A stretch of 64,000 nucleotides of DNA from Candidatus Peribacteria bacterium (GTDB lineage: Bacteria; Patescibacteriota; Gracilibacteria; Peribacterales; Peribacteraceae): positions 921-64,920 of the forward strand of contig JBEPVF010000008.1 in the NCBI GenBank assembly GCA_041691135.1. The letters are read 5' to 3'. Positions 1,454-16,319 of the stretch are shown one piece after another (positions within the stretch are counted from its first letter, which is position 1; each line of letters starts with the position of its first letter). The notes beneath the pieces were generated by a model. It worked only from the letters and a program-made list of their open reading frames with translations, was not told where the DNA came from and did no database searches. Position numbers and translations under genes: made by a program.

Positions 1454-4363
1454 ATGCCTATGCCCACTCCTCGATCCGGTCCCGGCGATGATCTAAGAAA
1501 TCAAGATTCTTTAGAGAATCCACTTTCAGATGCTCCTGAAGAGCAGAATAGAGAAGAAGCGGGCTTCATAGAATCTACTCGCGAGACACTTTCCGCTCGC
1601 GCAAAGGAAGCAATCGAATTGCCATCGAACCGAACCGTCCTCGATGTCCCCATTGAATTTTGTAGTGAGGGCAAGAAAATTGAAACACAGAACAGAAAAG
1701 GTACATATGTTGTTCGTGTAAATGCCAGGCGCTTTCGCAGCCGCGAAGATGCAGAGCGTGCCGGTATTCTTCAAGCCGCGTATCTTCGCTCTCTCCGCGA
1801 CCACTTACAGACCGAAACAGGTAAAGCATTTGAGGCGCTGCAATTATTCGGTACTGCTGCCCACAGCGCTCTACGTTTCAAGGGACTCAAGATGATGTCG
1901 GAGTGGGAGAAGGGAGAGACTTCTCCTTTGACAGCTACTTCTGAGACACCTCTCACACTTGCGCAAATCTTTGATCGCAGTCTTGAGCACTATGTTCTTA
2001 CCGGAATATTACCTGAAGCGATTCCGAACGAAGTTCGTCAGGCATTGGAAAAGATTCCAGGTCGCCAAGGGAAGAGCGCCCTCGATTTTATCGCAGAGAA
2101 TAGCCGATCTCTTAGGAGCAGCGCGAAACTGTACGAAGAACACATTGCCCCTCTGCGAGAACATTTAAAGGAAGAAGATGGGGAGAAGCGCATGACTGAG
2201 CGCGATGACTATGTCCCGCCTGACGGGAAAGGAGAGCAGGCACCTCTTGATCCGGAAAGCGTACGATGGAGAGTAGAGCCATTCGTGGGCGGTTACTACC
2301 GTCAGCAACTATTCCGATACGATCCAGCTGCACAAAAAATCGTTGCAGAACCGACAGATAAAACAGAGTTTCGCCTTACGGATGTTCCGGAGAATATAGA
2401 TGAATTGAAGCGTTACACGTTCCGCGGAGTGTTCGTCCCCGGCGAAGAAAACCGTATTCCATTTCCCGAAAAGGGACTGCCGCTTCCTGACACTCTCGAT
2501 CCAAAAGGAACATTTCGGCTCTATAGAAGTTCGGCAGGTATTTTTTCTCTCGAGGAAAAGCAAGAAGGCACTGTCACCGAACCCATGCAGTATTCTTTTG
2601 AGTTCGTTCTTGCCAGAAACAGCGATAACCGAATTGATGATGATCCAACCGAAGCCGATCTCATAACGATTGAGGGTCCACTGGATGCTACTGCGGAAGA
2701 ATTGCTTTCAGGTTTAAAACAAAACACTTTCCTTGGAAAAGCAGATCGCGGACGCACAGTCGTTTTTGCCACTCGCAAGCAGTTTACGTATCCGAAAGAG
2801 GAAGAAATGCCAGCAATGAATGAGCGATACGGGGTAGCTGGATCAAATCTTCACCCCGAAATGGCTGATCTTAAGCTCGCAGACTGCCATTGGAGCAACA
2901 TCCGGGCGTCCGATCTCGGACGGAGGTTGGATGTCCCCATGCGTACTCCAAGTGGCTTTTTCGTTACCCGTCACCCTGATGTAGATTTCGCCCCTGTTGG
3001 CGGTATCGGCCATGCATGGAGTGAGCGATGGGACGAGACATCAGAGCAGTGGATTCGCACAGATGCGACACCACCGAAGCAGAATGAAGACGAAGATGAA
3101 GAAGAGAACGAGGAAGATCAGCCTGCCTCAGCTCCTGCCGCTGCGGGTGAAAGAGAGACGAAGGTGGGTGAAAATGATGCAGAGAATGAAGTGGAGGAAA
3201 GCGGTGTCCTTGAGATGAATGAAGACGAGATTTCAAAACTTTTGGAACTCGTAACGCAGTCCACTCCTTCGGCGCAGGAAGTCGCAGAAGAATTATTCAG
3301 ACAGCGCACAAATGTTTCGGCAGCAGATTGGAAAAAGGTTGAGGGATTTGTGGAGACCGTGAATGCAACTCAGGTCGCACCTGAGGCGCAGATTCCTGAA
3401 ACACCGGAACTACTTCGCAACTTCCGTGAACGCATCACAGCTCCGAAAGGAACACTCGAGCGAGAATGGCAAAAACTCTTCTGCCTTATCTGCACCCACC
3501 GCGAGGTACGTCGTCGCAAATTCCCCGGCAATGTCCGTCAGAGTGAGAGCACAACGGGACTAGATAACCCGGTTGATGCGTACATTGATATTATGGCTGA
3601 CGAAAGCGATCCGATGGGATTTGGAATCGATACGCGGAGACCAGAAACTATTCTTGATGTGAAAGCCTTCGAGGAAGATGCGCTCGTCGACCTTACGTCT
3701 TCTATGGACGATACAGACAGCAAAGGAAACGTGATGCGCATTGAGCAGAAGAAAATGATTCTGTCGCTTTTGTCTCACCTCATGGAATTGAACGAAGAAC
3801 TGAATGATTCCCGCGTTCGTTCCACACTCCGTACACCACTCAAAATCCGCTCGGAGATTTATTCCATTCATGGACAAGGAAAGAAAAACCAAGGGCAGTT
3901 CGCTCGCCTCAAGGCCGCAGATGAAGACATTACGGAAGCCGCTCTCGTTCATCTTGCGCGAGAACTTGATCAGACCACACCCGGCGCGGGAGACTTCTTG
4001 AGCGCACTTCAGGCTTACAGAAACGGCATCTCCCCTGAGACTCTGCAAAAAATTCGCTCGGGGGATATTGTGAAACTGCTTACAATCTATTCCGATGGCA
4101 ATCACTGGTGCAGTAACTGCGGCTCCGAATCGTGCAACGTCCAGATCCATGCGGATCGCGTTCGCGCGGCGCAGGAGGAAATCGCTAAAATTCGAGAGCT
4201 TGGGATCATTGTGCAGGGCATCGGATTCACGAAAAAAGCTGAAGCGATCAAGATCATGTGCCATGATCCTAATGAGCCGGGCGGAGCCATTGTGGTTAAT
4301 GATGTCTCCCGAGCCGTATCAGCCAGGCATGCGATGCTAACGAAGCATTTACGAAACCTATAA
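1454..4363 (+). CDS. transglutaminase-like Cys-protease domain / poly-acidic linker / C-terminal vWA domain protein
   Basis: 969 aa. Cys-His-Asp core pattern ADCHWSN ... GHAWSERW ... IRTDATP, then an acidic run NEDEDEEENEED. C-terminal MIDAS-like DLTSSMD plus LLTIYSDGN is typical of vWA. No signal peptide seen. Confidence 0.7.
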   Translation: MPMPTPRSGPGDDLRNQDSLENPLSDAPEEQNREEAGFIESTRETLSARAKEAIELPSNRTVLDVPIEFCSEGKKIETQNRKGTYVVRVNARRFRSREDAERAGILQAAYLRSLRDHLQTETGKAFEALQLFGTAAHSALRFKGLKMMSEWEKGETSPLTATSETPLTLAQIFDRSLEHYVLTGILPEAIPNEVRQALEKIPGRQGKSALDFIAENSRSLRSSAKLYEEHIAPLREHLKEEDGEKRMTERDDYVPPDGKGEQAPLDPESVRWRVEPFVGGYYRQQLFRYDPAAQKIVAEPTDKTEFRLTDVPENIDELKRYTFRGVFVPGEENRIPFPEKGLPLPDTLDPKGTFRLYRSSAGIFSLEEKQEGTVTEPMQYSFEFVLARNSDNRIDDDPTEADLITIEGPLDATAEELLSGLKQNTFLGKADRGRTVVFATRKQFTYPKEEEMPAMNERYGVAGSNLHPEMADLKLADCHWSNIRASDLGRRLDVPMRTPSGFFVTRHPDVDFAPVGGIGHAWSERWDETSEQWIRTDATPPKQNEDEDEEENEEDQPASAPAAAGERETKVGENDAENEVEESGVLEMNEDEISKLLELVTQSTPSAQEVAEELFRQRTNVSAADWKKVEGFVETVNATQVAPEAQIPETPELLRNFRERITAPKGTLEREWQKLFCLICTHREVRRRKFPGNVRQSESTTGLDNPVDAYIDIMADESDPMGFGIDTRRPETILDVKAFEEDALVDLTSSMDDTDSKGNVMRIEQKKMILSLLSHLMELNEELNDSRVRSTLRTPLKIRSEIYSIHGQGKKNQGQFARLKAADEDITEAALVHLARELDQTTPGAGDFLSALQAYRNGISPETLQKIRSGDIVKLLTIYSDGNHWCSNCGSESCNVQIHADRVRAAQEEIAKIRELGIIVQGIGFTKKAEAIKIMCHDPNEPGGAIVVNDVSRAVSARHAMLTKHLRNL

Positions 4364-4392: not shown

Positions 4393-7206
4393 ATGCCTAC
4401 CAAGAAGCTCACAGGCGCACCCCTCGATCCTCCTGAAAGAGAGGATTCTCCTCCAGAAGGTGGAGAAAAGGCCACATCCCGCAAGATCAATGTTGTTCGA
4501 GAAGCAATGCGTCTTGGACTAGATCTGTCTGCTTTGCGTTTGGATCAGTTCGCTCCGCAAGATGGCGGGCATGTTGGCACGAATGGAGTACCGCTAGGTA
4601 CCGAAGACGTGAGACGCAAGGCGTTAGAAACACTCCATCTGCTCGATGAATACAACCGCGTGAAACTCGCACCGAGCAAGGCTTCTCTGGGGAAGCAGGA
4701 TGATTTATTTGAGGGAATTGAAAGTCTTGATGATTTCATTTCAGCTCTCGATACCAGCAAAGATAAAGGTGGTGAAAAGAAAACAGAGCCGACGCAAAAA
4801 TTCAGACGGGAGGAATTAGCGGATCGCATCAGCGAACTTCTTTCAGAGCCACAAGTGTATCAACTCCTGCGTCAGTCATTAACAAAGGAAACCGAGCGCT
4901 TTGTCGCCGTCCAACCGCTCTTGTCGCGGTTGCACAAGCTGCGCCAAGTGCAGGACATTGCTTTCGAGCGCATTCACACGCTCTCACTCGAGAGTAAACG
5001 TACTCACGGCAAGATCGTGGGATCAGTACAGACGGCCATTGAAAAGCTTTCGCGTCTTAGTAAGGAAGCAGATGAAGAGGAGAACCGCTTGGAAGAGGAG
5101 GCAAGTCCCTTGGAAAAGGGATGGATCGCCTCGCAGCGACTTCTTGAATATAAGCAGCAGATGAAGAAAGACCGTTTCGTCATGACTCCGAGTCGTCGTG
5201 CAATCCTCGATGAGATGATTGCGAAACTCGGAAGCAAAGGCCGAGTACTTCTGCTTGGTTCCAACGGCACAGGAAAGACGGAGCTAGCGGCAAAAGCCCT
5301 CAAGCTCACATCGAACGGCTATCACCTTGTTCCGTGGCAGGAAGCGACAACCGGACAGGATATTTTCGGACGCCAAGAGATTCGCCGTCAGAATGGTCAT
5401 GTAGAAAGCGGCCTTCGCCCCGGTCCGATGACTCGCGCCATCGAAGCGAAGGGTGACGAGCCAGCGGGTGTCCTGCATGATGAATTGAACCTCGGAAGCC
5501 TTCGCACTATTTATCTCTTGAAGAAGCTCTGGAACAGCCGTCCGGGGCAGGAAGTGGATGTGCCTGTGCTCGATGAGAAGCGAATGCTGCCACTTAACTA
5601 TGCCGAGGTGTATACGGCAAACCCGAAGGATGAGCGTACGAGCAATCGCGAGGAATTCGATGCGGGTATCACTCGTGTCCTCGGTGGTATGAATGTTCCG
5701 TTCCTTGCTCAAAACGAGCAGGAGCAGATTATTCTTGCAAAGCTCATTGATGAGAATGGCGTATTACATCTCTCGAAGAGCGAAGCACAAACTATCCGCG
5801 AACTTGTTGCTGCAGCAGTCATGACACAACAGTGCTTTGATCGTGCGTTTGCAGATCTAGGTGATGAGGCACTTGGTGAGATCAAAAAAATGACGGGTAT
5901 TTCTGATCTGAGACTGACGAAGAAATTCCTCGATCCAGGTCGTCTGATGGAAATGTTTGATACCTATGAGCAGAAGCGGGCAGAAGGAATGAGTGTGGCG
6001 GATTATCTTTCTGGAGAATTGAAGAAATTCCTTGCTGAATTTGAAGTGGAGGAAGAGCGAAATATCGCAATTGCCATTCTTAAATTGAAAGGTGTTATTG
6101 CTGCCGATAGCACAGCTACAGAACCGCATGTTCAGGTTCTAAAGAAGCCGGGTGAGAAGCCGTATCTACTTCCTTCCGAGCTTGCATTCGTTGTCTCTTG
6201 TGATGATGAATTGGATGATTCGGATATTGAATTCGATCAACCAGAGATCAGTATAGAAGATGTCCTTGCGACCGATGGTGCCGAACTTTTGGAATTTCTC
6301 AATAAAGGATCACCTGATGGGATTCGAGCGAAGACCCGTAGAGGTGTTGCCGAAGCACTCGGTACGTCACAGAAAACAATTGATCGTGCTCGCCAGATCA
6401 TGCTTGAAAAATGCGGAGAGGGTCACTTCTATGGCCCAAGTGAACTGGAGAAGACCTTCCCCGGAATGAAAATTGATCTGAAGGACGTTCCTACGCTGCC
6501 TTCCGAGAGCGAGATTCAGCGTCATGCTGCTCTTGGTCAAGCATTGCGCCTTCGCATCAGCAAAGCTCCGGATGGATCGAAATTAACGATGCAGAAAATG
6601 CATCAACTTCTTCAGGATGAGTTCACCAAGAGCAAAGATGGCAAAGTGCTCTATAGCGCCGAAGATGAATGGAAGTTGAAATCGACATTCTTTACGGAAG
6701 AAGTGCCGGAGCTTGCTTGGGGATTCACTTCTGATGAAGTGCTGCCGAATTCTACGGGCAAAAACCACCTGCAGCAGACACAATTGATCGCCGAATACGC
6801 TAAAAGCACACTCTTTAAGAGTGAGCAAATGCCGCAGGAATACCGCGAAGCAATGGCGGAATTAACCGCTCAGCAGAATGAAATTCAGCAGCTCATGAGC
6901 AGCGATTGGAAAGCTGCCGCAGACAGATTGGCGAATCTGAAAATCAATAAGCTCATGCGCGCCACTCCCGTCGAAACTCTCTGTGATCTTCTCGTCACGT
7001 TCCGCAACAGTGATCCGAAGAAGCGCAAACGCTTACTTGAGAAGAAACTGACATGGACAGCTACTCAAAGCTCGGACGGTTTCCTCGTCTTCGTCGGCCG
7101 CTTCGCTCCGGACGGCGTGTACGTCAACGACTGGTCTCCGGACTACTCGCATGACGATCTCGGGGTTGTCCTCGCTCGGAAGTTCCCTAGAGCCTTGCGC
7201 ACTTGA
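4393..7206 (+). CDS. AAA+ ATPase (MoxR/AAA_5-like) fused to a C-terminal DGR-diversified domain (DGR target 1)
   Basis: 937 aa. Walker A LLGSNGTGKT, Walker B GVLHDELN. The last ~260 aa are paralogous to ORF 7288-8310 and end in VR-1, which matches TR except at TR adenines. Confidence 0.85.
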   Translation: MPTKKLTGAPLDPPEREDSPPEGGEKATSRKINVVREAMRLGLDLSALRLDQFAPQDGGHVGTNGVPLGTEDVRRKALETLHLLDEYNRVKLAPSKASLGKQDDLFEGIESLDDFISALDTSKDKGGEKKTEPTQKFRREELADRISELLSEPQVYQLLRQSLTKETERFVAVQPLLSRLHKLRQVQDIAFERIHTLSLESKRTHGKIVGSVQTAIEKLSRLSKEADEEENRLEEEASPLEKGWIASQRLLEYKQQMKKDRFVMTPSRRAILDEMIAKLGSKGRVLLLGSNGTGKTELAAKALKLTSNGYHLVPWQEATTGQDIFGRQEIRRQNGHVESGLRPGPMTRAIEAKGDEPAGVLHDELNLGSLRTIYLLKKLWNSRPGQEVDVPVLDEKRMLPLNYAEVYTANPKDERTSNREEFDAGITRVLGGMNVPFLAQNEQEQIILAKLIDENGVLHLSKSEAQTIRELVAAAVMTQQCFDRAFADLGDEALGEIKKMTGISDLRLTKKFLDPGRLMEMFDTYEQKRAEGMSVADYLSGELKKFLAEFEVEEERNIAIAILKLKGVIAADSTATEPHVQVLKKPGEKPYLLPSELAFVVSCDDELDDSDIEFDQPEISIEDVLATDGAELLEFLNKGSPDGIRAKTRRGVAEALGTSQKTIDRARQIMLEKCGEGHFYGPSELEKTFPGMKIDLKDVPTLPSESEIQRHAALGQALRLRISKAPDGSKLTMQKMHQLLQDEFTKSKDGKVLYSAEDEWKLKSTFFTEEVPELAWGFTSDEVLPNSTGKNHLQQTQLIAEYAKSTLFKSEQMPQEYREAMAELTAQQNEIQQLMSSDWKAAADRLANLKINKLMRATPVETLCDLLVTFRNSDPKKRKRLLEKKLTWTATQSSDGFLVFVGRFAPDGVYVNDWSPDYSHDDLGVVLARKFPRALRT
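7069..7186 (+). repeat. DGR variable repeat VR-1
   Basis: 118-nt gap-free match to TR 8726-8843. By hand alignment, 14 mismatches, all at TR adenines, plus one non-A difference near the 3' edge (TR aaC vs VR aaG). Confidence 0.9.
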
Positions 7207-7262
7207 ATGCTTGAACTTCCTCGATTCCTTTTTCCTTGAAGCATCCGCTACTGACGAATTTT
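7187..7262 (+). repeat. conserved post-VR element, copy 1
   Basis: ~75 bp directly after VR-1. About three-quarters identical by eye to the stretch after VR-2. Contains cttga(a) repeats and the shared block ccttgaagcatccgctac (7234-7251). Confidence 0.5.
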
Positions 7263-7287
7263 CACCTCCTGTTGTCTCTCACTCTCA

Positions 7288-8310
7288 ATGCCACGCGAAG
7301 TACTCCATACGTTCATCCGGCAACTCAAAGAAAGTACTGCCTACAAAGATCATGTGGGCGTTCGCACTGTTGTCGATGAGACAGTTCAAAGAATTGCCGC
7401 TCTGTCGGAAGAAGACGGCGGTCCACAGCTCCGAGAGGAAATACAGAGCTTACATGAACGTATTGTCCCTCTCCTGCATGGAACAAATGCGCCGAAGGGA
7501 AAGGAGAGAAAGGGAAATTCGATCAATCCCAAGGAGGCAGAAACCATCATGGGCAGAGACCATTTCTTCGGCGCAGAGGCCGTTGCCAAGGCTTTCCCGG
7601 GCATCCCACTCAAACCGGAGCAGATTCCAGCTATACCGTTCTCCAAAGAAGACCTACAACGAGCCAAGGAACTTGGAGACAGTCTCCGTCTGCGGGTGAG
7701 TAAAGCGCCGGGTAACGGCAACTTGAGCATGGAGAAGATGCAGGAACTGTTGCAGCCAACCTTCGACCAAAAGAACGAAGGAAAGGTTTTGTATGATACC
7801 GACTGGTACGAGGGTGAGGACTTCTTCAAGGAAGCCCCTGAACTCTGCTGGGTGCTTACATCGGATGGAATCATTCCGGATTCCGAAGACAAAGATTATC
7901 TCCAGCAGACGGAACATATTGCCGAGTACCTTCGTGAGACGGTTTATAAGGGCAAAAAACTTCCGCAGCAATACAGCGATGCAATCAAGGAAATGGAAAC
8001 TCAGAAAGATGAGATCCGTCGCCTTATCGATGCTAATGACTGGCAGAAAGCAGCTGAAAAACTTGCGAATCTTACACTCAACAAACTCACGCGCCGCGTC
8101 CCTGTTGAAGTGCTCTATGACATGCTTGTGACATTCCAGAATGGTGATAAGCGCCATCTGGAAGATTTCTATGATTGGACAGGTGTCCGCAGCTCGGTCG
8201 GTCGCCTCGTCCACGTCGGCCCCTTCGATCCGGACGGCGTGGGCGTCGACGACTGGTCTCCGAGCGGCTCGGATGACGCTCTCGGGGTTGTCCTCGCTCG
8301 GAAGTTCTGA
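7288..8310 (+). CDS. DGR target protein 2 (stand-alone paralog of the C-terminal module of the AAA+ protein)
   Basis: 340 aa. Residues from DHFFGAEAV onward align with GHFYGPSEL... of ORF 4393-7206. Ends ...DWSPSGSDDALGVVLARKF, encoded by VR-2. Confidence 0.85.
   Translation: MPREVLHTFIRQLKESTAYKDHVGVRTVVDETVQRIAALSEEDGGPQLREEIQSLHERIVPLLHGTNAPKGKERKGNSINPKEAETIMGRDHFFGAEAVAKAFPGIPLKPEQIPAIPFSKEDLQRAKELGDSLRLRVSKAPGNGNLSMEKMQELLQPTFDQKNEGKVLYDTDWYEGEDFFKEAPELCWVLTSDGIIPDSEDKDYLQQTEHIAEYLRETVYKGKKLPQQYSDAIKEMETQKDEIRRLIDANDWQKAAEKLANLTLNKLTRRVPVEVLYDMLVTFQNGDKRHLEDFYDWTGVRSSVGRLVHVGPFDPDGVGVDDWSPSGSDDALGVVLARKF
8191..8307 (+). repeat. DGR variable repeat VR-2
   Basis: Gap-free match to TR. 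By hand alignment, 17 mismatches inside the block, all at TR adenines. Same aaG vs TR aaC boundary difference as VR-1. Confidence 0.9.
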
Positions 8311-8380
8311 GCCTTGAGGTCTTGAAAGCTTGATCCTCCTTGAATCCTTTACTCTTGAAGCATCCGCTACAGGCGATTTT
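8308..8380 (+). repeat. conserved post-VR element, copy 2
   Basis: gccttgaggtcttgaaagcttgatcctccttgaatcctttactcttgaagcatccgctac... is homologous to 7187-7262. Confidence 0.5.
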
Positions 8381-8725
8381 GTCGGATTTTGCACTGGATG
8401 CTGGCTTCATTTGCATCATAGGATGCATTTGCGGCCCGTTCTTGCAGTCAGGGTTACGGCTCTGGCTCACGGTACGCCTCATCTCTGCTACCACTGAAGC
8501 GGTCAGCGTAGGTGGAAACTCACCAGAATACCGTGCCTCTACGGAGCACAGTAGCGAGTGGGCTTAGATGTGAAGGAACTTCTTGCTCATTCTCAGACTC
8601 GGTATCGTTTCCCAAGATGATTGCGGGCGAATCAAATTCAGGGGAAAGAGGATATAGCCCAGTGTTTTTTGTTTGGCTGGGGGTAAACCTCGATCTCCGG
8701 TGTCTCGGACGGGAGTGAGCAACAC

Positions 8726-8843
8726 AGCTCGGACGGTAACCTCGTCAACGTCGGCAACTTCGATCCGGACGGCGTGAACGTCAACAACTGGAATCCGAAC
8801 AACTCGAATGACGATCTCGGGGTTGTCCTCGCTCGGAACTTCC
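8726..8843 (+). repeat. DGR template repeat (TR)
   Basis: Non-coding. In the VR frame it reads SSDGNLVNVGNFDPDGVNVNNWNPNNSNDDLGVVLARNF, with 10 AAY codons. The only differences from both VRs inside the block are at its adenines. It may extend 5' to ~8721. Confidence 0.9.
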
Positions 8844-8858
8844 TTCTCGGTAATCCAG

Positions 8859-8881
8859 GGGACTCTCGCCTTCAGAGTCCC
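8859..8881. other. 8-bp stem-loop just 3' of TR and 3' of avd
   Basis: gggactct-cgccttc-agagtccc lies between the TR end (8843) and the avd stop codon (8887-8889). Confidence 0.35.
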
Positions 8882-8886
8882 TTGGG

Positions 8887-9237
8887 TTATCCCTCGCGTG
8901 TCGATTTGATCCATCCGCCGAGCATGCGTCCAATCTCATCAATCATTTCCTGAATGAGAGCGTACTTCTTCAGGTCGATGGCCTTTACGTCCTTGGCGAG
9001 ACGAAGGAAGACACGGAGAACATTGAGCTTAAGGCTGACGCGCTCAAGCGGTTCCAGTTTCTGTGCTTTGCGTACTTGGCTGGCAAGAATGATGCCTTCC
9101 AATACCTCCAGCACGAGATTCTCGCAGCGAGGCCAGAGCGCAGTGCGATCTTGTTTGGAAATAGATGCCCGAAACTCATAGAGCTTCTTGGTTAGTTCGT
9201 AGGCCTTCTTGAAAATTGGGATATCTAATTCTTCCAT
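8887..9237 (-). CDS. avd: DGR accessory variability determinant (Avd, four-helix-bundle family)
   Basis: 116 aa from the internal ATG at 9237: MEELDIPIFKKAYELTKKLYEF...IDEIGRMLGGWIKSTREG. Size and pattern are typical of Avd / 23S-IVS four-helix-bundle proteins. Opposite strand to TR and RT. Confidence 0.8.
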   Translation of the reverse strand: MEELDIPIFKKAYELTKKLYEFRASISKQDRTALWPRCENLVLEVLEGIILASQVRKAQKLEPLERVSLKLNVLRVFLRLAKDVKAIDLKKYALIQEMIDEIGRMLGGWIKSTREG

Positions 9238-9250
9238 AACGACATAAAGC

Positions 9251-10300
9251 ATGAAAGTACACAAGCATATCTTCGAGCGGATCATTACGCCAGAGAACTT
9301 ATTCCAAGCTTGGGAGGAGTTCCGCAGAGGCAAGGGATCTCGAAAAGACGTACAGGCGTTCGAGTGGCAGCTTGAACAGAACATCCTGTCTCTTTGTCGG
9401 GATCTGCGTAGCCGGACGTACAGACATGGGGAATATTCGGCTTTTTCGATCTGTGATCCGAAGCAGCGCCGGATACATAAAGCGGCTGTACGTGATCGCA
9501 TACTTCATCACGCAATTTTTAAGGTGTTGAATCCCATCTTCGAGCCGACGTTTATTGCACATTCCTATTCCTGTCGTGAGGGGAAAGGAACACACAAGGC
9601 AGTTGATACATTGGAAACGTGGCTGCGAAAAGTCAGCCAAAATTGTAGGGTGCCGTGTTTTGCTCTCAAGTGTGACATCCAACAATTCTTCGCCTCAGTC
9701 GATCATGCAATCCTGCTCTCGATCCTTGATCGGAAGATCAAAGACCCTGATGCGATGTGGCTGCTGAAGGAGGTAGTGGAGAGTTTCTCCACGCCTGTGC
9801 AAGAAAATGAACGTCCCAAAGGTATTCCTATCGGCAATCTCACTTCGCAGTTATTTGCGAACGTGTACTTGAACGAGTTCGATCAATTCATGAAGCAAAA
9901 ACTACGCATCCGTCACTACGTTCGGTACACAGATGATTTTGTGATCGTGAGTTCAGACAAGTCTGCATTGGAGAATCTGATTCCAGTCATGCAGGAATTT
10001 CTCAGTGAAACTATGTTTCTCAAACTGCATCCTCGAAAAATCATCCTTCGCAAATTCGGTCAGGGCATCGACTTCCTCGGATATGTCATCCTGCCTCACT
10101 ATCGTGTACTTCGGACTCGGACAAAACAGCGAATGTTTCGGAAACTCAAGCTCCGAGTGGTTAGCTTTAAGACTGGTAAGGGTAGCGAGTCGTCTGTTGA
10201 GTGTTCACTCCAGTCCTATCTTGGCGTTCTATCGCATGCGAATACTGAACAGCTCACTGAGGAGTTGAAAAACCAATGCTGGTTTTGGATGTGCGAATAG
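9251..10300 (+). CDS. DGR-type reverse transcriptase
   Basis: 349 aa. IPIGNLTSQLFANVYLNEFD is the DGR-specific [I/L]GxxxSQ motif; catalytic YVRYTDDFVIV. Adjacent to TR and Avd. Confidence 0.9.
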   Translation: MKVHKHIFERIITPENLFQAWEEFRRGKGSRKDVQAFEWQLEQNILSLCRDLRSRTYRHGEYSAFSICDPKQRRIHKAAVRDRILHHAIFKVLNPIFEPTFIAHSYSCREGKGTHKAVDTLETWLRKVSQNCRVPCFALKCDIQQFFASVDHAILLSILDRKIKDPDAMWLLKEVVESFSTPVQENERPKGIPIGNLTSQLFANVYLNEFDQFMKQKLRIRHYVRYTDDFVIVSSDKSALENLIPVMQEFLSETMFLKLHPRKIILRKFGQGIDFLGYVILPHYRVLRTRTKQRMFRKLKLRVVSFKTGKGSESSVECSLQSYLGVLSHANTEQLTEELKNQCWFWMCE

Positions 10301-10404: not shown

Positions 10405-11859
10405 ATGCTCACAAAATCCGACTATCTCCGGTACCTCGAATGTCCCATCCATCTTTGGATACACAAGCATCGATCCCATGAGGTCGGTCATCATATTGAT
10501 CCTCAACTTCAGTGGATCTTCGAGCAGGGGGACAGAGTGGAAGCATACGCACGTAGCCTCTTTCCCGATGCCGAGATAGTCAGCGGCCACTCGCAAAAAT
10601 CTGAGGAGCAGACTAAGGCATTAATTGAGTCAGGGGTTACAGACATATTCCAAGCGACGGCGATTGCGGATGGATTGCTCGCTATGGCTGACGTTTTCCA
10701 GCTCGATCCTGAAACGCAGGAATGGAATTTGTATGAAGTGAAAAGTACGAGTGAACTCCAAGATGGGCATCTACATGATGTGTGTTTTCAGATGATTGCC
10801 TTTAAGAAAGCGGGATACACCATGGGCAAGCTTCATCTCATCCACATCAATCCCAATTACGTAAGACGCGGAGAGATAGATGCACGTTCCTTGTTGGTCA
10901 TTGAAGACATCACGGAACAGGTCTATTCCTTGGAAGCGGAGGTGCTTGTCCAGATTGCTGCTGCGAAACAGGTTGAAGCATCAGCTGACATGCCATCGTG
11001 TGACGGCTGTACGTGCTCACCCAAGGACTGCTTTTGCCATCACTATTGCTACCCCGATCTTCCGGATTACTCTGTCTTTCAACTCAGTCGTATCAAGGTA
11101 AAACAGGCCCGTGATCTCTATCGCAAAGGAATTCGTAATCTTCTCGAGATTCCTCCGGACTTCAAGCTCACAGCAGCGCAAGCACTACAGTTGCAAGTCG
11201 TCCGCACTGGAAAACCCGTCATCGATACGAGGAGCATCAGCACTATCCTGAATACGACGAAATACCCCCTCGCTTTTCTCGACTACGAAACGTTCTTTCC
11301 GGCTGTGCCACTCTTTGACGGATACAAGCCCTATCAACAGATGGTTTTTCAGTACTCGCTTCACGTCTTGTTGGAAGATGGAACGCTACAGCATTCTGAA
11401 TGTCTTGTGCGAACTCTTGTCGATCCTGTGTCAGAGATCCTTCGTACTCTACGGTCCCAGCTTCCTGAAAATGGAACGGTTGTGGTGTGGAACAAGGGGT
11501 TTGAGATGGGGAGGAACGAAGAAATGGCCGCGCTCTTGCCCGATCAGGCGGTTTTCCTTCGTTCGCTCAATAGCAGGGTCTTCGATCTCATGGAAATCTT
11601 CAGCAAACACCACTATGTACACCCCGATTTCCGGGGAAGTTACTCGATTAAAAAAGTCTTACCCGTTCTAGTGCCATCTCTGTCTTATAAGGATCTGGAA
11701 ATTCAAGAAGGCGGAACAGCCTCACTGACGTGGTATCGGATGCTTACCGATGGACGCAGTGAGGTCGAGAAGCTGAAGACGCGTGAGGCCATGCTCGCAT
11801 ATTGTAAACTTGATACGTTGGCGATGGTCGAAGTTTTTCGATGTTTGAAGGCTTTGTAG
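10405..11859 (+). CDS. DUF2779-like protein (predicted PD-(D/E)xK / Cas4-like nuclease with Cys cluster)
   Basis: 484 aa. N-terminus MLTKSDYLRYLECPIHLWI, LYEVKSTS motif, Cys cluster CDGCTCSPKDCFCHHYC. Family assignment is from memory of DUF2779 signatures. Confidence 0.55.
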   Translation: MLTKSDYLRYLECPIHLWIHKHRSHEVGHHIDPQLQWIFEQGDRVEAYARSLFPDAEIVSGHSQKSEEQTKALIESGVTDIFQATAIADGLLAMADVFQLDPETQEWNLYEVKSTSELQDGHLHDVCFQMIAFKKAGYTMGKLHLIHINPNYVRRGEIDARSLLVIEDITEQVYSLEAEVLVQIAAAKQVEASADMPSCDGCTCSPKDCFCHHYCYPDLPDYSVFQLSRIKVKQARDLYRKGIRNLLEIPPDFKLTAAQALQLQVVRTGKPVIDTRSISTILNTTKYPLAFLDYETFFPAVPLFDGYKPYQQMVFQYSLHVLLEDGTLQHSECLVRTLVDPVSEILRTLRSQLPENGTVVVWNKGFEMGRNEEMAALLPDQAVFLRSLNSRVFDLMEIFSKHHYVHPDFRGSYSIKKVLPVLVPSLSYKDLEIQEGGTASLTWYRMLTDGRSEVEKLKTREAMLAYCKLDTLAMVEVFRCLKAL

Positions 11860-11889: not shown

Positions 11890-12440
11890 TTCCACCGCAA
11901 AACCCCCTCCGTCAGGAGGGGGGATGAAGTCGGTCCGGCGTCTTCCCGTCCCGTGGAATGGTAGGATTTCCCTATGCAGCAGATCTTCAGGAAGCAATCC
12001 AACTGCGTCTATCACTGCACCTATCATCTCATCCTCTGTACAAAGTACCGTCGGAAAATCTTCAATGACGGCGTCTTTGCGTATATGAAAGCCACCCTCA
12101 AAGAACTTCCCGCCCATTACCCTGAGATCGAGATCCTCGAGATCAATCACGATCAGGACCACATCCATCTCCTTCTCTGGATTCCGCCTAAAATGGCCAT
12201 CGGAAAGGTAGTTTCTATCCTTAAATCCAACACCGCCCGCCATCTCAAGAAGAAGTTCCCTTTTCTCAAAGAGGTCTACTGGGGAACGGAAGGCATCTGG
12301 TCAGACAGCTACTTCGTCTCCACCGTGGGCATCAATGAAGACGTCATCCGGAGGTACATCGAACACCAGGGGAGGGAGGACGCCGGACAGCATCAGCTGA
12401 AACTCGTGTAAGCCACCACCGTCAGGTGGTGGTAGTTCAC
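11890..12440 (+). mobile_element. IS200/IS605-family insertion sequence (tnpA only)
   Basis: tnpA is flanked by two 8-bp-stem hairpins with the same GTCA loop: ccccctcc-gtca-ggaggggg (11903-11922) and ccaccacc-gtca-ggtggtgg (12413-12432). Exact ends not determined. Confidence 0.7.
11974..12411 (+). CDS. tnpA: IS200/IS605 family Y1 (HUH) transposase TnpA
   Basis: 145 aa. YHLILCTKYRRKIF, HUH motif DHIHLLL, catalytic-Tyr region SDSYFVSTVG. Confidence 0.85.
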   Translation: MQQIFRKQSNCVYHCTYHLILCTKYRRKIFNDGVFAYMKATLKELPAHYPEIEILEINHDQDHIHLLLWIPPKMAIGKVVSILKSNTARHLKKKFPFLKEVYWGTEGIWSDSYFVSTVGINEDVIRRYIEHQGREDAGQHQLKLV

Positions 12441-12672: not shown

Positions 12673-13167
12673 TCATTCGTGCGGGAATGTATACAGGATG
12701 CCAAAGACATCATTGACCAAACGAAGAGGGTACTGACACAAGAGACACCACGAATAACCTCTGATCTTCGCAACGACATCAGGGGGGACTGTCATTTTTG
12801 AATATACGACCAAGGGCACTTTTGCAGCCTGCACACGCTTCAAAATTTCATCGAAGTGCTGCATGCCTTCCCCGTATGCCACTATCACAAGACCATGATC
12901 CGTGATCCGATCCGCCATTTGGAAATTACTGCACGGCTGTTCCTCAACATTAAAGAAGCTGATGTCGCGGAGCATCTGGGTTTCTATTTCCATATCCATC
13001 CCCTCACATTTGAAAATCATGATGGGTCGCTTTGCATTTCGGAAGAGCCGGATTTCTTTGCTGTAGATGAAGCGCAAGATGGTATACAGAGCTATCGCTC
13101 CAACTGCACCTCCAATCAAAGCCGAGATCAGCGTTTGTATATTGAAGATGAAATTTAAAATATCCAT
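12673..13167 (-). CDS. small single-TM protein in the CBASS effector position (unrecognised family)
   Basis: 164 aa. Hydrophobic N-terminus ILNFIFNIQTLISALIGGAVGAIALYTILRFIY, then ~125 aa with an alternating beta/alpha-looking pattern. Starts 6 bp after the Trip13-like gene's stop. Confidence 0.6.
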   Translation of the reverse strand: MDILNFIFNIQTLISALIGGAVGAIALYTILRFIYSKEIRLFRNAKRPIMIFKCEGMDMEIETQMLRDISFFNVEEQPCSNFQMADRITDHGLVIVAYGEGMQHFDEILKRVQAAKVPLVVYSKMTVPPDVVAKIRGYSWCLLCQYPLRLVNDVFGILYTFPHE

Positions 13168-13173
13168 AGTGTT

Positions 13174-14115
13174 TTAGTGTAGCAGGGAATGGGAAGAAGC
13201 TTCTGCCTCTTTGAAGGGAGGCGTAGGTACGAATGCCTCAACGATCGCCTCTGCATGCTTGAAGGAAACACGGTGATCTGGGATTGCATCAAAAAGGATA
13301 GTCGGGAGAAGACGCTGGATTATGTCCGAGAACGTGCAGCCATATCCGTCTTCCCCATGGGAGGTCTTCTTGGCGAGTGTGCCAATCTGTGCTTGTGTGA
13401 TCCCGGTTTCAGCGAGGTATTTGCCGAGAATATAAGCGCATTGCTCTTGATTGGGTCTTCCGAATTCAAAAACCTCAGCAGCCCGGCGCTTGATGGCGGG
13501 ATCGAGTGCGCCAACGCGGTTCGTGCACATCACCACGATCACTGGTAGTCCTGCACCCATGAGGCTATCGATGCCCCGGATGAGCGCGTTCACACCAGCC
13601 CTATCCTCGTGGTGCATCTGATCCGCCTCGCGTGACTGAGCCAGCGCGTCTGCCTCGTCGATCAGGAGCACAATCGCAGAGGACGGCTTCTTGCCGCTCG
13701 ACAAACCTTTTTTCGCTGCTTCTCTCACCTTCTGGAATGCATTTGTAATCAAGGTTGTCATCTGGCCGACTGCTCCGATGCCTCTTGCCGTGAGGCTTAA
13801 TCGGTATAGGCGAACAATTATCTCTTCCTGCCGCGCGATAGGATCGGCGAAACTCTCGGCGAGGGCTGTCTTTCCAGCTCCCACGTCTCCAGCGAAGACA
13901 AAGAGAGGTGAGCGACTGCGGATGAGTTCGACAATAGGTAGGACGCGGCGATGGTGCTTTTCGCTCCATTCGTTCAGCAGGTGGGGATTGAACATGATGC
14001 GGGTTTCTTTCAGCAAACGATCCTTCATTTCATCGAGTCCGACCAGCGCTGCAAAACGCTTTGCAGCATCTTGGTTGGGGAATTCGATGGTTTCTTCAAA
14101 GATGTCTTGGTCCAT
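13174..14115 (-). CDS. Trip13/Pch2-like AAA+ ATPase (CBASS type III accessory)
   Basis: 313 aa. Walker A FAGDVGAGKT, Walker B VLLIDEADALAQS. Sits in the HORMA/Trip13 operon context. Confidence 0.8.
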   Translation of the reverse strand: MDQDIFEETIEFPNQDAAKRFAALVGLDEMKDRLLKETRIMFNPHLLNEWSEKHHRRVLPIVELIRSRSPLFVFAGDVGAGKTALAESFADPIARQEEIIVRLYRLSLTARGIGAVGQMTTLITNAFQKVREAAKKGLSSGKKPSSAIVLLIDEADALAQSREADQMHHEDRAGVNALIRGIDSLMGAGLPVIVVMCTNRVGALDPAIKRRAAEVFEFGRPNQEQCAYILGKYLAETGITQAQIGTLAKKTSHGEDGYGCTFSDIIQRLLPTILFDAIPDHRVSFKHAEAIVEAFVPTPPFKEAEASSHSLLH

Positions 14116-14117
14116 GG

Positions 14118-14624
14118 TTAGAGGGGTTTCAGGGTGCGACGCAGGACTGCTCCGCCACCATTGGAATATGTTTTATCATAAGTCCATACGCCGTCTGCTC
14201 CGGGCTGCTCTGCGCCAGTGCGCTGGATGGGCAGCGCTGATTCGATTTTTGCCTGCTCGTAGGTGGTCAAGTCATCAAACTTTTGGTTCTTCGTCAGGAA
14301 GGACTTCCAAGTAGCACCGGCGATGTCTGCCCTTGCCGGTACGCGACCAGGAGAATCGTTTGTGAAGATGCTTCCCCATTGGGCGTTGTAACTCAATGCC
14401 GCCCCTCCGACCCAATTGCCGTTCCTCTGGAAGCCATACTCGACCGAATCAAGGTAGCCGTCCAACATAAGCAGGATGACTTCGTCAATGTACGTCGCTA
14501 TCCGCTCGTCGTTGGGCTGTCCATAGAACCGCTGCATCTGGCGGAGATCGGCTGCCACCTTCGATGCGAGGTAGACGGCGTGGGTCCGGGTGAAGGTTGA
14601 GGTGGTCGTGAAGGTGGTAGTCAT
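14118..14624 (-). CDS. bacterial HORMA-domain protein (CBASS type III accessory)
   Basis: 168 aa from the ATG at 14624, which overlaps the CD-NTase stop as ATGA. MTTTFTTTSTFTRTHAVYLASKVAADLRQMQRFYG resembles bacterial HORMA N-termini as I recall them. Position is between the NTase and the Trip13-like gene. Confidence 0.7.
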   Translation of the reverse strand: MTTTFTTTSTFTRTHAVYLASKVAADLRQMQRFYGQPNDERIATYIDEVILLMLDGYLDSVEYGFQRNGNWVGGAALSYNAQWGSIFTNDSPGRVPARADIAGATWKSFLTKNQKFDDLTTYEQAKIESALPIQRTGAEQPGADGVWTYDKTYSNGGGAVLRRTLKPL

Positions 14625-15658: not shown

Positions 15659-15693
15659 TAACGTCTTGCAAACCTGTATGGGCGCGGCTACAG
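15635..15693. promoter_or_regulatory. two operator-like palindromes in the CBASS / LexA-like divergent region
   Basis: TACAG-aaatc-CTGTA (15635-15649) and CTGTA-N10-TACAG (15674-15693). Both use the same 5-mer half-sites. Confidence 0.35.
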
Positions 15694-15701
15694 TAAGCCC
15701 A

Positions 15702-16319
15702 ATGAAGCCACTCCATCACCTCCAAGCGAAATTGCTTGAAGCGCTCCGCGACGTTCCGGAGGGAGGTTACTCGCTCGAAGAACTACGCAGAGCGATTGGA
15801 GCTTCTTACAAAAGTCAGGTTGTGCACCATATGGAACAATTGGAAATGAAGGGGTTGATCAAAAACGATCCTGACAATCCTGATAACTACATCATATTCA
15901 ACGAACAGGAAGGCTCCGAGGAACCATTTTTCTTCATGCCCGTTCTAGCCTTAGCTTCTGCGGGCAAGGGAATGGATAACTCCCATCATGTCATTGAAAG
16001 AATCCCCGTTCGTTCAAAAATGATTCCATGCAAAATGGATGATGCCTTTCTTGTGCAGGCGGATGGGGATTCGATGGAGCCACGCATACACCATAAAGAT
16101 TTTCTTGTAGTGGAACGACTTAAAAGTGATCGCGAGCCGCTTGGGCAGATTGTTGTTTGTGAAGAAGGACACGAGGTGAAAGTAAAACAATTCACTCGAT
16201 CCGGAGGTTCAATAGTTCTTGTGTCTTTAAATCAAAAATACGATCCGTACGTTGTAACTAATCCTGATAATTTCCGAATACATGGAATCGTTCGCAGCGT
16301 GTTATTTTCTAAGCTCTAA
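15702..16319 (+). CDS. LexA/CI-like repressor (winged HTH + S24 peptidase)
   Basis: 205 aa from the ATG at 15702. LLEALRDVPEGGYSLEELRRAIG...HHMEQLEMKGLI looks like a wHTH. Nucleophile motif ADGDSMEP and a downstream Lys (VKVKQF). Confidence 0.75.
   Translation: MKPLHHLQAKLLEALRDVPEGGYSLEELRRAIGASYKSQVVHHMEQLEMKGLIKNDPDNPDNYIIFNEQEGSEEPFFFMPVLALASAGKGMDNSHHVIERIPVRSKMIPCKMDDAFLVQADGDSMEPRIHHKDFLVVERLKSDREPLGQIVVCEEGHEVKVKQFTRSGGSIVLVSLNQKYDPYVVTNPDNFRIHGIVRSVLFSKL

Follow-up and report, generated by a model that had tools for sequence, protein, structure and literature searches.

This Candidatus Peribacteria genome carries a genuine, complete diversity-generating retroelement (DGR) whose VR-VR-TR-(avd)-RT architecture is of the CPR type (Table 1; the window is the whole 64-kb stretch of DNA that we analyzed). 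The first-pass annotation had proposed a complete DGR with one template repeat (TR) and two variable repeats (VRs), and this proposal was borne out, with every testable sequence hallmark present. Elements of this kind are well known, and the TR-(avd)-RT cassette with an AAA-ATPase-fused target is already catalogued for CPR bacteria; CPR/DPANN DGRs of this type were reportedly described by Paul et al. 2017, and among the related loci compared the same module occurs in ~30 Patescibacteria species. The locus is a further member of a known CPR DGR type, and its interest sits in the flanking non-coding DNA; beyond the DGR itself, it presents apparently cytoplasmic targets beside a CBASS, a putative structured RNA 5' of the TR and CTTGA-like arrays after the VRs. 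Taken whole, the locus is best explained, we believe with high confidence, as a complete CPR-type DGR combined with probable intracellular-sensor targets and a proposed cis-priming RNA 5' of the TR.

Formal ungapped comparison of the TR with each VR confirmed the gap-free 118-nt alignment to two 3'-terminal repeats, as well as the non-coding nature of the TR, and moved the end of VR2 from 8307 to 8308. The TR was identical to VR1 at 103/118 positions and to VR2 at 99/118, and tabulation by TR base upheld the earlier counts of 14 and 17 mismatches at TR adenines. The C8839-to-G change, previously given as the single non-adenine difference, is indeed present in both VRs, but VR2 carries a second, C8843 to T, at its extreme end. 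Neither VR shows a non-adenine difference in the first 113 nt of the alignment, and the restriction of all internal mismatches to 28 adenines among 113 nt has a hypergeometric p of 1.5e-10 for VR1 and 3.4e-13 for VR2. Ordinary paralogy or gene conversion with an adenine excess arising by chance, for which nothing more than the bare existence of the repeats speaks, is vanishingly improbable and is refuted by the alignment, by the hypergeometric test (31/31 internal mismatches at adenines, p about 1e-10 and 3e-13) and by the recurrence of this adenine restriction in ~50 additional TR/VR pairs among the related loci examined, with a DGR-type RT and Avd adjacent. The A-free stretch of 22 nt, TCTCGGGGTTGTCCTCGCTCGG, occurs unchanged at 7158-7179, 8280-8301 and 8815-8836 and is followed by the TR-specific base, in agreement with the shared block and IMH/IMH*-type boundary described earlier. 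With adenines masked, a scan of the 64-kb window on both strands returned these three copies of the repeat only. In the VR frame, each of the 28 TR adenines is the first or second base of its codon, and adenine mutagenesis cannot give rise to a stop codon. The earlier figure of ~6e11 combinations from the 10 AAY codons of the variable part was reproduced (15^10 = 5.8e11) and is conservative, since the number of protein variants per VR rises to 2.4e15 once every A-containing codon is counted. By the established mechanism of the family, an RT-Avd complex would reverse-transcribe a TR-containing RNA, random bases would enter the cDNA opposite template adenines, and the cDNA would then replace the last ~90 nt of coding sequence in two paralogous genes, so that as many as 16 codons of each gene could change and a stop codon would never arise.

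Table 1. Features of the DGR locus, in coordinates of the window
Feature	Position	Strand	Remarks
Partner gene	1454..4363	+	969 aa; upstream of targets; conserved; without membrane segment
Target gene 1	4393..7206	+	937 aa; N-terminal AAA_5 ATPase and C-terminal variable domain of ~260 aa
VR1	7069..7186	+	variable part 7069-7157; IMH-like A-free block 7158-7179
CTTGA array directly after VR1	7202..7239	+	copies at 7202, 7210, 7235
Target gene 2	7288..8310	+	340 aa; stand-alone copy of variable domain
VR2	8191..8308	+	variable part 8191-8279; IMH-like block 8280-8301
CTTGA array directly after VR2	8313..8358	+	copies at 8313, 8321, 8329, 8339, 8354
Structured non-coding domain 5' of TR	8436..8725	+	~290 nt; conserved; proposed 5' part of DGR RNA
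Strand GAAGGAA-C-TTC	8572..8582	+	proposed primer-strand equivalent; predicted partner TR 3' edge 8836-8846
P3 5' strand	8583..8594	+	12-bp helix with 8711-8722; proposed equivalent of phage 'cPRT Stop' duplex
P3 3' strand	8711..8722	+	3 nt upstream of TR
TR	8726..8843	+	non-coding; 28 adenines, 10 AAY codons; TR-specific base C8839
Post-TR hairpin	8850..8890	+	17 bp; overlaps avd stop codon; dG -26 kcal/mol, z = -7.2
avd (accessory variability determinant)	8887..9237	-	116 aa; convergent with TR, divergent from RT
DGR reverse transcriptase	9251..10300	+	349 aa; RVT_1 4.6e-22; YTDD motif

The RT carries the DGR-type motif already reported for it, GIPIGNLTSQLFANVY, together with YTDD, and its best PDB match was the Bordetella phage bRT (8ub7; 3.3e-48, full length), with IGNLTSQLFANVY opposite IGSLTSQLFANVY in the alignment; group II intron RTs reached 1e-23, against 3e-48 for bRT. 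The adjoining gene is, as claimed, of the Avd type: its product scores 85.1 bits against NF033474 DivGenRetAVD (curated cut-off 80) and 2.8e-17 against PF22296 bAvd. Every open reading frame of the cassette is intact and the catalytic motifs are present. In all related loci the TR is co-oriented with the RT, at a TR-to-avd-stop distance of at most ~165 nt and mostly 14-55 nt. With the prototype, the BPP-1 DGR (mtd-avd-TR-brt), the locus shares an RT of the same clade, Avd, TR-to-VR differences specific to adenines, VRs that lie 3'-terminally in the target ORF, and, where VR and TR end on the 3' side, a GC-rich block devoid of A that gives way to TR-specific bases; unlike in BPP-1, avd has an inverted orientation and sits between TR and RT, only 43 nt separate the TR from the avd stop in place of a 140-nt non-coding spacer, and two chromosomal, cytoplasmic targets replace a single phage tail-fiber target. 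Wu et al. 2018 (PMC5758913) define an architecture B3, TR-(avd)-RT, as well as a class of CPR VRs whose targets are Midasin/AAA proteins. The gene order, orientation, AAA-ATPase-fused targets and CPR host are common to our locus and the CPR/DPANN B3 DGRs; nothing essential distinguishes them, and the targets are candidate members of the 'UVR4' Midasin/AAA class of Wu et al. Close relatives of the locus come from the same Rifle groundwater genomes that were used in CPR DGR surveys. The avd inversion, the prior cataloguing of the cassette in CPR and the flanking non-coding features had escaped the first-pass annotation.

Within the conserved domain 5' of the TR, a 33-mer at 8572-8604 is invariant across Peribacteria whose RTs share only 62% identity. 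A covariance model derived from other CPR lineages only matched 8436-8528 and 8578-8722 of the window, weakly (16.3 and 11.7 bits, with 701 nt searched), and no Rfam family matched the domain. RNAalifold paired 8572-8582 with 8836-8846, with a single C-C mismatch at 8839, and compensatory changes are seen in the homologous long-range helix of 16 other CPR loci; within Peribacteria the proposed primer helix is invariant and therefore has no covariation of its own, and its register is defined only to within one or two bases. The P3 helix displays compensatory changes in 9/12 pairs in other lineages, and it and the long-range helix were each recovered unprompted by RNAalifold in two separate alignments. 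When helices were tested against versions with their partners slid, 93.8% of cells were paired compared to 36-50%, the covariation score was 0.66 compared to 0.10-0.17, and 19/29 pairs of the tested helices showed compensatory changes.

By analogy with the phage, the priming structure of this template RNA and that of the textbook example appear to lie on different sides of the TR. In the phage RNP, a two-nucleotide gap separates the template:primer duplex from an 11-bp stop duplex, the second strand of which is found immediately upstream of the TR; the helices proposed here resemble this geometry of primer and stop duplexes in reversed order, in that one strand base-pairs to the 3' edge of the TR beside a ~11-12-bp duplex whose partner is directly upstream of the TR, although the pairing strands lie 5' of the TR, unlike those of BPP-1. 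The cis-priming elements would then sit 5' of the TR and not 3'; the 8572-8582 strand would pair with the TR 3' edge and leave the TR-specific C8839 mismatched, which would mark the cDNA start site; the P3 helix directly upstream of the TR would halt synthesis; and the 17-bp post-TR hairpin would bind Avd and/or terminate the transcript. We tentatively keep in view a different arrangement, which we judge possible but probably incorrect, in which the upstream RNA is real but acts as a leader, stability element or protein-binding scaffold whose long-range helix merely closes the TR loop, and priming proceeds via a Bordetella-like spacer 3' of the TR, antisense to avd. Putative Avd-binding stem-loops just downstream of the TR in 207/278 Avd-containing DGRs, CPR included (Handa et al., bioRxiv 10.1101/2023.10.23.563531), are consistent with it, as is the strong hairpin that follows the TR here. 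The T run is also absent after the hairpin in the window, and the transcript may therefore conceivably read through into the antisense avd and the RT gene. However, a hairpin is kept after the TR in related loci and in many of them is a textbook terminator with a T run behind its GC stem, beyond which lies avd coding DNA on the other strand. The upstream strand, moreover, pairs exactly at the TR/VR homology boundary, the mismatch falls on a TR-specific base in two divergent lineages, and a 2-nt linker plus a 12-bp helix with its partner directly upstream of the TR reproduces the phage arrangement, all of which argues against priming from a 3' spacer.

Clusters of CTTGA, defined as at least three copies within ~50 nt, occur at only two sites on either strand of the 64-kb window, after VR1 and after VR2 (0.03 clusters in shuffled sequence). 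Arrays of a similar type, yTTGr, are also present behind the VRs of the CPR loci examined, and every VR, though not the TR, appears to have a CTTGA-like array after it. These arrays take the place of the GC-rich inverted repeat that follows the BPP-1 VR, none of which was found after the VRs here, and the post-VR2 array contains no stable hairpin (z = +1.4). We found no description of the 5' RNA domain, the long-range helix or the VR-flanking repeats in the CPR DGR literature examined.

Comparison with a related metagenome contig (L049) supports DGR activity on an evolutionary time scale: the two TRs are identical at 125/125 positions in flanks that are only 89-94% identical, and differences fall at TR-adenine sites in 16/18 cases for VR1 and 15/16 for VR2, with flanks 93-98% identical. 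The cassette could instead be an evolutionary relic, its VRs diversified in the past and its machinery non-functional in the present organism. Consensus VRs of one close relative are identical in four Rifle-derived contigs from different samples, and another relative (L008) shows 9-10 non-adenine differences from its own TR that are common to both VRs; at least one lineage member has therefore changed its TR without any later rewriting of its VRs. We nevertheless regard a relic as unlikely in view of the intact open reading frames and catalytic motifs, the lack of any non-adenine mismatch in 113 nt of either VR, a TR perfectly conserved relative to L049 while both VRs diverge at adenine sites, and the strong conservation of the 5' RNA domain and VR-flanking repeats. 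The Logan run of the source sample, SRR27874556, yields identical contigs on assembly.

The C-terminal 259 aa of target 1 share 49% identity with target 2, and the ~250-aa domain common to both constitutes, judging from its homologues, a CPR-restricted family: target 2 has 41 homologues (CPR 41/41), no Pfam family matched its domain, and the last ~35 residues are hypervariable among 37 family members. The AlphaFold model of target 2 has a pLDDT of 90.7, and Foldseek searches with the variable domain, in which every E-value exceeded 1, were dominated by FGE/Mtd/EgtB-type C-type-lectin folds, weakly suggesting a C-type-lectin-like tip. Residues 285-436 of target 1 form a MoxR/dynein-type AAA_5 ATPase (Pfam 1.1e-10) with the Walker A motif GSNGTGKT. 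The partner gene is syntenic in Peribacteria loci, and recognizable relatives of it occur in more distant CPR loci; no Pfam family matched the 969-aa protein of the window, whereas its homologues exceeded the Pfam cut-off for Transglut_core in L012 and L024 and for VWA in L040. With these homologues and its motifs ADCHWSN, GHAWSERWD and a MIDAS-like DLTSS, the partner is probably a transglutaminase-like and vWA-domain protein.

No signal-peptide-like or transmembrane segment was detected in the two targets or the partner (maximum Kyte-Doolittle 19-residue mean 0.5-1.3), and a type III CBASS lies beside the cassette at 12673-15658 (cyclase, HORMA, TRIP13, TM effector); because of these two features, the targets most likely act as an intracellular, ATPase-coupled ligand or invader sensor with a diversified binding site. 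Related loci are likewise flanked by defense genes. Surface or secreted adhesins for host-cell attachment, the function most often suggested for CPR DGR targets, would suit CPR bacteria, which are thought to be episymbionts, and host-interaction roles were earlier proposed for such targets, as summarized in PMC10907252; we consider this quite improbable for three proteins without a signal-peptide-like or transmembrane segment, a cytoplasmic-type AAA_5 ATPase fused to one target, and defense systems as neighbors. As intracellular sensors, the targets resemble the MoxR/vWA and STAND 'antigen sensor' conflict systems of multicellular bacteria (Dore et al. 2024, PMC10907252; Kaur et al. 2020, PMC7159879) in their linkage to a MoxR-type AAA ATPase and a vWA protein, their cytoplasmic location and their defense-island neighborhood. 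No VMAP, TIR, trypsin or caspase-type partner, as found in those systems, was identified at the locus. The present locus also departs from the antigen-sensor systems in that its ATPase and variable domain form a single protein, in that a transglutaminase-like domain accompanies the vWA domain of the partner, and in that it belongs to a CPR bacterium with a small genome and not to a multicellular one. Dore et al. 2024 (PMC10907252) place the RTs of most CPR DGRs in a clade far from their clade 5.

Base-by-base comparison aligned the template repeat (TR) without gaps to both variable repeats (VRs), with 103 of 118 positions identical in VR1 and 99 of 118 in VR2. Within the first 113 nt every mismatch fell on a TR adenine (14/14 in VR1 and 17/17 in VR2), an outcome with a chance probability of 1.5e-10 and 3.4e-13, respectively, given 28 adenines in this stretch. 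The first-pass annotation had described adenine-only mismatches, ten AAY codons in TR and an adenine-free 3' block of about 22 nt common to the three copies; the formal alignment bore out the first, our count in the variable part of TR returned the same ten codons, and the 22-nt block proved identical in TR, VR1 and VR2. Its description of the repeats was accurate and its interpretation as a diversity-generating retroelement (DGR) correct, with minor corrections: VR1 stands as placed, VR2 ends at 8308 rather than 8307, and the single non-adenine difference reported after the block (C8839 in TR, G in both VRs) is joined in VR2 by a second, C8843 to T, both at the extreme end of homology. The adenine-free, GC-rich block, the C8839/G difference and the divergence that follows together form a putative IMH/IMH* boundary. 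In the VR reading frame all 28 TR adenines occupy codon position 1 or 2, no stop codon can be reached from the variable part, and 16 adenine-containing codons allow 2.4e15 protein variants per VR. Both VRs are 3'-terminal, ending no more than about 20 nt from the stop codons of their ORFs (ORF ends 7206 and 8310), and TR is non-coding, lying within the 576 nt that separate target 2 from avd. Scanning the window on both strands with TR adenines ignored gave no fourth copy of the repeat.

We then compared the cassette proteins with curated families and solved structures. The 349-aa ORF that ends the cassette is an RVT_1 reverse transcriptase (RT; Pfam) with a catalytic YTDD motif, and its best match among solved structures is the Bordetella phage DGR RT (bRT; 8ub7, 3.3e-48, 168 bits, full length). 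Group II intron and retron RTs reached about half the bits of bRT (87 bits for group II intron RTs), and the RT did not reach the cut-off set for the group II maturase model. As the earlier reading of a DGR-type RT beside TR would have it, IGNLTSQLFANVY of the RT aligned to IGSLTSQLFANVY of bRT at the DGR-clade [I/L]GxxxSQ motif. The neighbouring Avd gene also stood, with the correction that it is encoded on the minus strand: its 116-aa product scored 85.1 bits against a cut-off of 80 for NF033474, the NCBI curated DGR Avd equivalog, and also matched Pfam PF22296 (bAvd). The avd and RT start codons are divergent and lie 13 nt apart. We have little doubt that the locus is a DGR.

Features of the DGR cassette and the adjacent CBASS operon (window coordinates)
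Feature	Position	Strand	Remark
Partner gene	1454-4363	+	969 aa, upstream of targets
Target 1	4393-7206		AAA_5 fusion, 937 aa
VR1	7069-7186		variable repeat
CTTGA repeats after VR1	7202, 7210, 7235	+	directly 3' of VR1
Target 2	7288-8310		340 aa, stand-alone variable domain
VR2	8191-8308		variable repeat
CTTGA repeats after VR2	8313, 8321, 8329, 8339, 8354	+	directly 3' of VR2
TR	8726-8843	+	cassette order, first
avd	8887-9237	-	between TR and RT, opposite strand
RT	9251-10300	+	last in cassette order
CBASS one-TM effector	12673-13167	-	PADLOC
CBASS TRIP13 AAA	13174-14115	-	PADLOC
CBASS HORMA	14118-14663	-	PADLOC
CBASS oligonucleotide cyclase	14621-15658	-	PADLOC

With avd inverted between TR and RT, the cassette has the architecture B3, 'TR-(avd)-RT', defined by Wu et al. 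2018 (PMC5758913), who also recognised a VR class of CPR bacteria, UVR4, with targets matching Midasin/AAA ATPases and a fold left undecided. Because both the B3 order and AAA-type CPR targets were described there, the cassette is an ordinary, already catalogued CPR DGR type of low intrinsic novelty. When we scanned one genome per species, 40 loci were returned, hosted by Peribacteria, Magasanikbacteria, Paceibacteria, Berkelbacteria, Saccharibacteria, Yanofskybacteria and others, and nearly all that extend far enough share the order of one to three target-domain genes, TR, inverted avd and RT. In the related loci examined, mismatches between TR and VR were always adenine-dominated, and TR always lay on the RT strand, being inverted wherever the RT was inverted relative to the targets; the distance from TR to the avd stop was usually 14-55 nt and at most about 165 nt. 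From a metagenome scan with a loose DNA pattern, the nhmmer profile screen accepted only one of the returned stretches (L102) as a real element. The window locus is a well-preserved example of the commonest CPR cassette, of value as a clean reference with two VRs, no non-adenine noise and a sister population with an identical TR. In a related Peribacteria genome (HK-STAS; locus L001, 8032-11005) one TR serves three targets, of which one is the AAA fusion and two stand alone; the flanks hold a restriction-modification system, a serine recombinase and a gene that fuses Prok-E2, ThiF, JAB and patatin.

Closer inspection of the 415 nt between VR2 and TR revealed conservation among Peribacteria beyond the level of the proteins, with a 33-mer (8572-8604) that stays invariant even at a locus where RT identity is down to 62%. 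Rfam yielded no family for 8250-9300 at gathering thresholds or permissive E-values, and a consensus promoter and terminator scan of 8250-9350 returned no sites. The region could be aligned in 16 more distant CPR loci, the alignable part starting, by eye, a few bases 3' of an extended -10-like box (TGnTATAAT). When we joined the 5' region of these distant loci to the final 22 nt of TR and the flank 3' of it, RNAalifold returned, unprompted, a hairpin whose GUYUACGGA loop is conserved; the 12-bp helix P3, in which an early strand pairs with one about 15 nt upstream of TR; and a pairing of AAAGACU, two nucleotides before P3, with AGUCUUU at the TR 3' edge. Bases were paired in 93.8% of sequence-pair cells, as opposed to 36-50% with partners slid by 1-3 columns, the covariation score was 0.66 against 0.10-0.17 with slid partners, and 19 of 29 pairs showed compensatory changes, such as GACU/AGUC to CACU/AGUG in one lineage and to GAUU/AAUC in another. 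A covariance model built from 14 of the distant sequences recovered held-out loci with E-values between 1e-31 and 1e-15, and its E-values for Peribacteria loci were 5e-9 and 9e-7; searched locally against the window, it matched 8578-8722, which contains both P3 strands, at 11.7 bits and 8436-8528 at 16.3 bits. In a fold of Peribacteria sequences alone, GAAGGAA-C-TTC (8572-8582) paired with GAA-C-TTCCTTC (8836-8846) and was followed directly by P3 (8583-8594 with 8711-8722); these strands are invariant in that group and for this reason carry no covariation of their own. A small protein encoded upstream of TR was rejected as an explanation, since the helices show covariation and the indel lengths are not divisible by three. 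We conclude that the 5' domain is very probably a real structured RNA.

Two variations on this RNA were also observed. Peribacteria have two UACGG-loop hairpins upstream of the primer-like strand (8436-8472 and 8530-8552 in the window) and other CPR lineages one; the covariance model aligned the first Peribacteria hairpin (8436-8472) to the conserved hairpin. In two Berkelbacteria-type loci (L021 7315-7790 and L026 10868-11345), about 300 nt with an ORF splits the 5' half, which carries the hairpin and the AGACUGCU motif, from the TR-proximal half, and looks like an insertion inside the structured RNA.

The arrangement invites comparison with the Bordetella phage ribonucleoprotein (RNP), in which Sp47-56 of the spacer 3' of TR pairs with TR117-129, Sp A56 is the primer and templating begins at TR G117; after a gap of two nucleotides, Sp59-70 pairs with a segment just upstream of TR in an 11-bp duplex, before which cDNA synthesis ends (bioRxiv 10.1101/2023.10.23.563531). 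Like the phage RNP, the CPR RNA has two adjacent duplexes whose partners are the TR 3' edge and a segment just upstream of TR, with a two-nucleotide linker between them in the main CPR group; unlike in the phage, the shared strand lies 5' of TR. The window has no Bordetella-type 3' spacer with priming and stop strands: the Bordetella-type RNA runs from the avd 3' end through TR into a 140-nt spacer, whereas here only 43 nt separate TR from the avd stop, most of them in one hairpin. This hairpin (8850-8890; 17 bp, dG -26 kcal/mol, z = -7.2) overlaps the avd stop codon, and in many relatives its equivalent is followed by a T run, resembling an intrinsic terminator. Hairpins at this position were read as Avd-binding stem-loops by Handa et al. 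(bioRxiv 10.1101/2023.10.23.563531).

In the 5' pairing the TR-specific base sits at the helix end or one position inside, facing a mismatch: in the main group it is an A in TR and a C in nearly all VRs, opposite a G, and in Peribacteria it is C8839 in TR and a G in VRs, opposite a C. This placement fits a cDNA initiation site, a role that would also explain the non-adenine difference noted in the first-pass annotation. We propose that a structured domain of about 200-300 nt 5' of TR would supply the equivalent of the primer strand, pairing with the TR 3' edge, and also the adjoining strand of the 'stop' duplex, which in the phage comes from the spacer 3' of TR; that the transcript would end at the hairpin right after TR; that the single non-adenine TR/VR difference would mark initiation; and that the priming nucleotide would lie between about 8578 and 8580. 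By analogy with the phage RNP, we put the chances at about even that the 5' domain provides both primer and stop strands; if it does, primer/stop geometry would be conserved despite a reversed order of RNA segments, and the domain would offer concrete nucleotides to mutate. None of the papers covered by our incomplete literature search describes a 5' priming domain, and priority is uncertain; the survey by Handa et al. would miss such an arrangement because it spanned 40 nt upstream and 100 nt downstream of TR (bioRxiv 10.1101/2023.10.23.563531).

We also assessed the sequence that follows each VR. A GC-rich inverted repeat or stable hairpin was absent from the 80 nt after VR1 and VR2 (z = +1.0 and +1.4 against shuffles); this feature is not a defining one for DGRs, being present downstream of the VR in only about a third of them (PMC5758913). 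Each VR is instead followed directly by a cluster of CTTGA repeats, and these are the only two such clusters on either strand of the 64-kb window, where shuffles give 0.03. Across 26 CPR loci examined, nearly every VR was followed by 3-6 TTGA/TTGG motifs about 8-10 nt apart, and TR lacked such an array. We suggest that recipient VRs could be marked by these 3-6 yTTGr repeats at about 8-10 nt spacing instead of by a cruciform, which makes the array a candidate recipient-site signal for retrohoming. A trivial barrier that stops translation in all frames is a possible alternative, since the successive TGAs fall in different frames. If the recipient-site reading is right, retrohoming would here rely on a new type of target-site determinant, and VR-specific arrays are a candidate answer to the poorly understood recognition of the cDNA recipient in a large group of DGRs that lack the phage cruciform. 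The full model, in which the DGR RNA of this CPR lineage would be the Bordetella phage RNA in circularly permuted form, with primer and stop strands from the 5' domain, an end at the post-TR hairpin and initiation at the non-adenine difference, and in which VRs are marked by yTTGr arrays and not a cruciform, is offered only tentatively.

Indirect evidence for activity came from a related population. Contigs assembled from SRR27874556 match the window exactly and, as expected of repeats, end within VR1 and TR; querying with the exact RT and target-2 proteins yielded nothing but short contigs of a single run, broken at the repeats and therefore without population information. Over the cassette, the JGI metagenome contig L049 shares 89-94% identity with the window, and its TR is identical (125/125). 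Its VRs have diverged: VR1 shows 18 differences from that of the window, 16 at TR-adenine sites, and VR2 shows 16, of which 15 are at such sites; the 300-nt stretches upstream of VR1 and VR2 are 93% and 98% identical. Such a pattern is, as read from the two sequences, the signature of repeated VR rewriting from an unchanged template since the populations split. The window element was probably active recently on an evolutionary time scale. By contrast, another relative has identical VRs in four contigs. In a further locus (L008, 9782-11544) the TR resembles that of the L009 locus, and the VRs resemble products of a window-type TR; because both VRs have 9-10 non-adenine differences from TR in common, this TR was apparently replaced or mutated and the VRs not rewritten since.

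We next turned to the diversified proteins. Target 2 has 41 relatives in a large protein collection, all from CPR (Patescibacteria) genomes or metagenomes and the nearest named Candidatus Peribacteria or Peregrinibacteria, and neither it nor any of them contains a Pfam domain. The family alignment is well conserved except over the last ~35 residues, in which conserved G, V, P, S and LGVV positions are interspersed with free variation. Target 1 contains an ATPase of the AAA_5 (MoxR/dynein) type, in which the Walker A motif is intact, and its C-terminal ~260 aa share 49% identity with target 2. The family alignment yielded a confident AlphaFold model of target 2 (pLDDT 90.7), in which the VR falls on the final three to five beta strands, following a helical insertion. 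Foldseek against the PDB returned FGE, EgtB, SenA, PvdO, CarF and phage Mtd as most of the top 50 matches, over ~75 columns and all at E > 1; no significant PDB match came from sequence or profile searches (the profile search listed DC-SIGNR only, at E = 0.95), and Foldseek found no match among viral structures. The FGE/Mtd-type (C-type-lectin) fold family carries most known VRs, and the list of matches is no more than suggestive of a C-type-lectin-like fold for the variable domain of target 2.

The partner gene accompanies the targets in the Peribacteria loci, and relatives of it can still be recognised at more distant loci. The window's own 969-aa partner protein has no Pfam match, but its homologues in loci L012 and L024 passed the Transglut_core threshold and that in L040 the VWA threshold, and the window protein retains Cys and His motifs and a DxSxS-like motif. 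Neither target nor the partner protein has a hydrophobic segment, and none of the three matched a PADLOC model. From this context, the best reading is that targets and partner would form an intracellular vWA/MoxR-type machine with a hypermutated ligand-binding tip. The vWA-MoxR ternary conflict systems (Kaur et al. 2020) combine a MoxR-type AAA protein, a vWA protein and VMAP/effector; here we find AAA_5 and, via homologues, vWA/transglutaminase-like components, and a VMAP protein was not identified at the locus. A parallel to the intracellular machine is the 'antigen sensor' proposed for multicellular bacteria (Dore et al. 2024). The transglutaminase/vWA gene, the AAA-fused variable domain and the defence island would extend the idea of a hypermutated intracellular sensor to minimal-genome CPR bacteria.

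Two conserved cis features that had gone unremarked, together with a defence-like setting, emerge from the analysis and raise the value of the locus as a model for TR-(avd)-RT priming and targeting. Flanks of related loci carry CBASS, restriction-modification, serine recombinase and Tn7-like genes. In the window, a complete type III CBASS operon (12673-15658, minus strand; PADLOC E-values 1e-128 to 9e-21) lies beyond a nuclease-like DUF2779 gene (PD-(D/E)XK-like; 10405-11859) and an IS200/IS605-type Y1 transposase ORF (11974-12411). Because a transposase is present and the DUF2779 gene is found on the other side of the cassette in a relative, the neighbourhood suggests a mobile or shuffled island. 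A LexA-like repressor with Peptidase_S24 and LexA DNA-binding domains (15561-16319) is followed by tRNA-Ser(GCT) (16402-16476), the only tRNA in the window. Further on (21167-22864 and 25710-26891; minus strand) are two genes that have no relation to the DGR and may encode surface proteins: the product of the first, 565 aa, is like right-handed beta-helix proteins and pectate lyases, and that of the second, 393 aa, has five cysteine-rich DUF4215 repeats.
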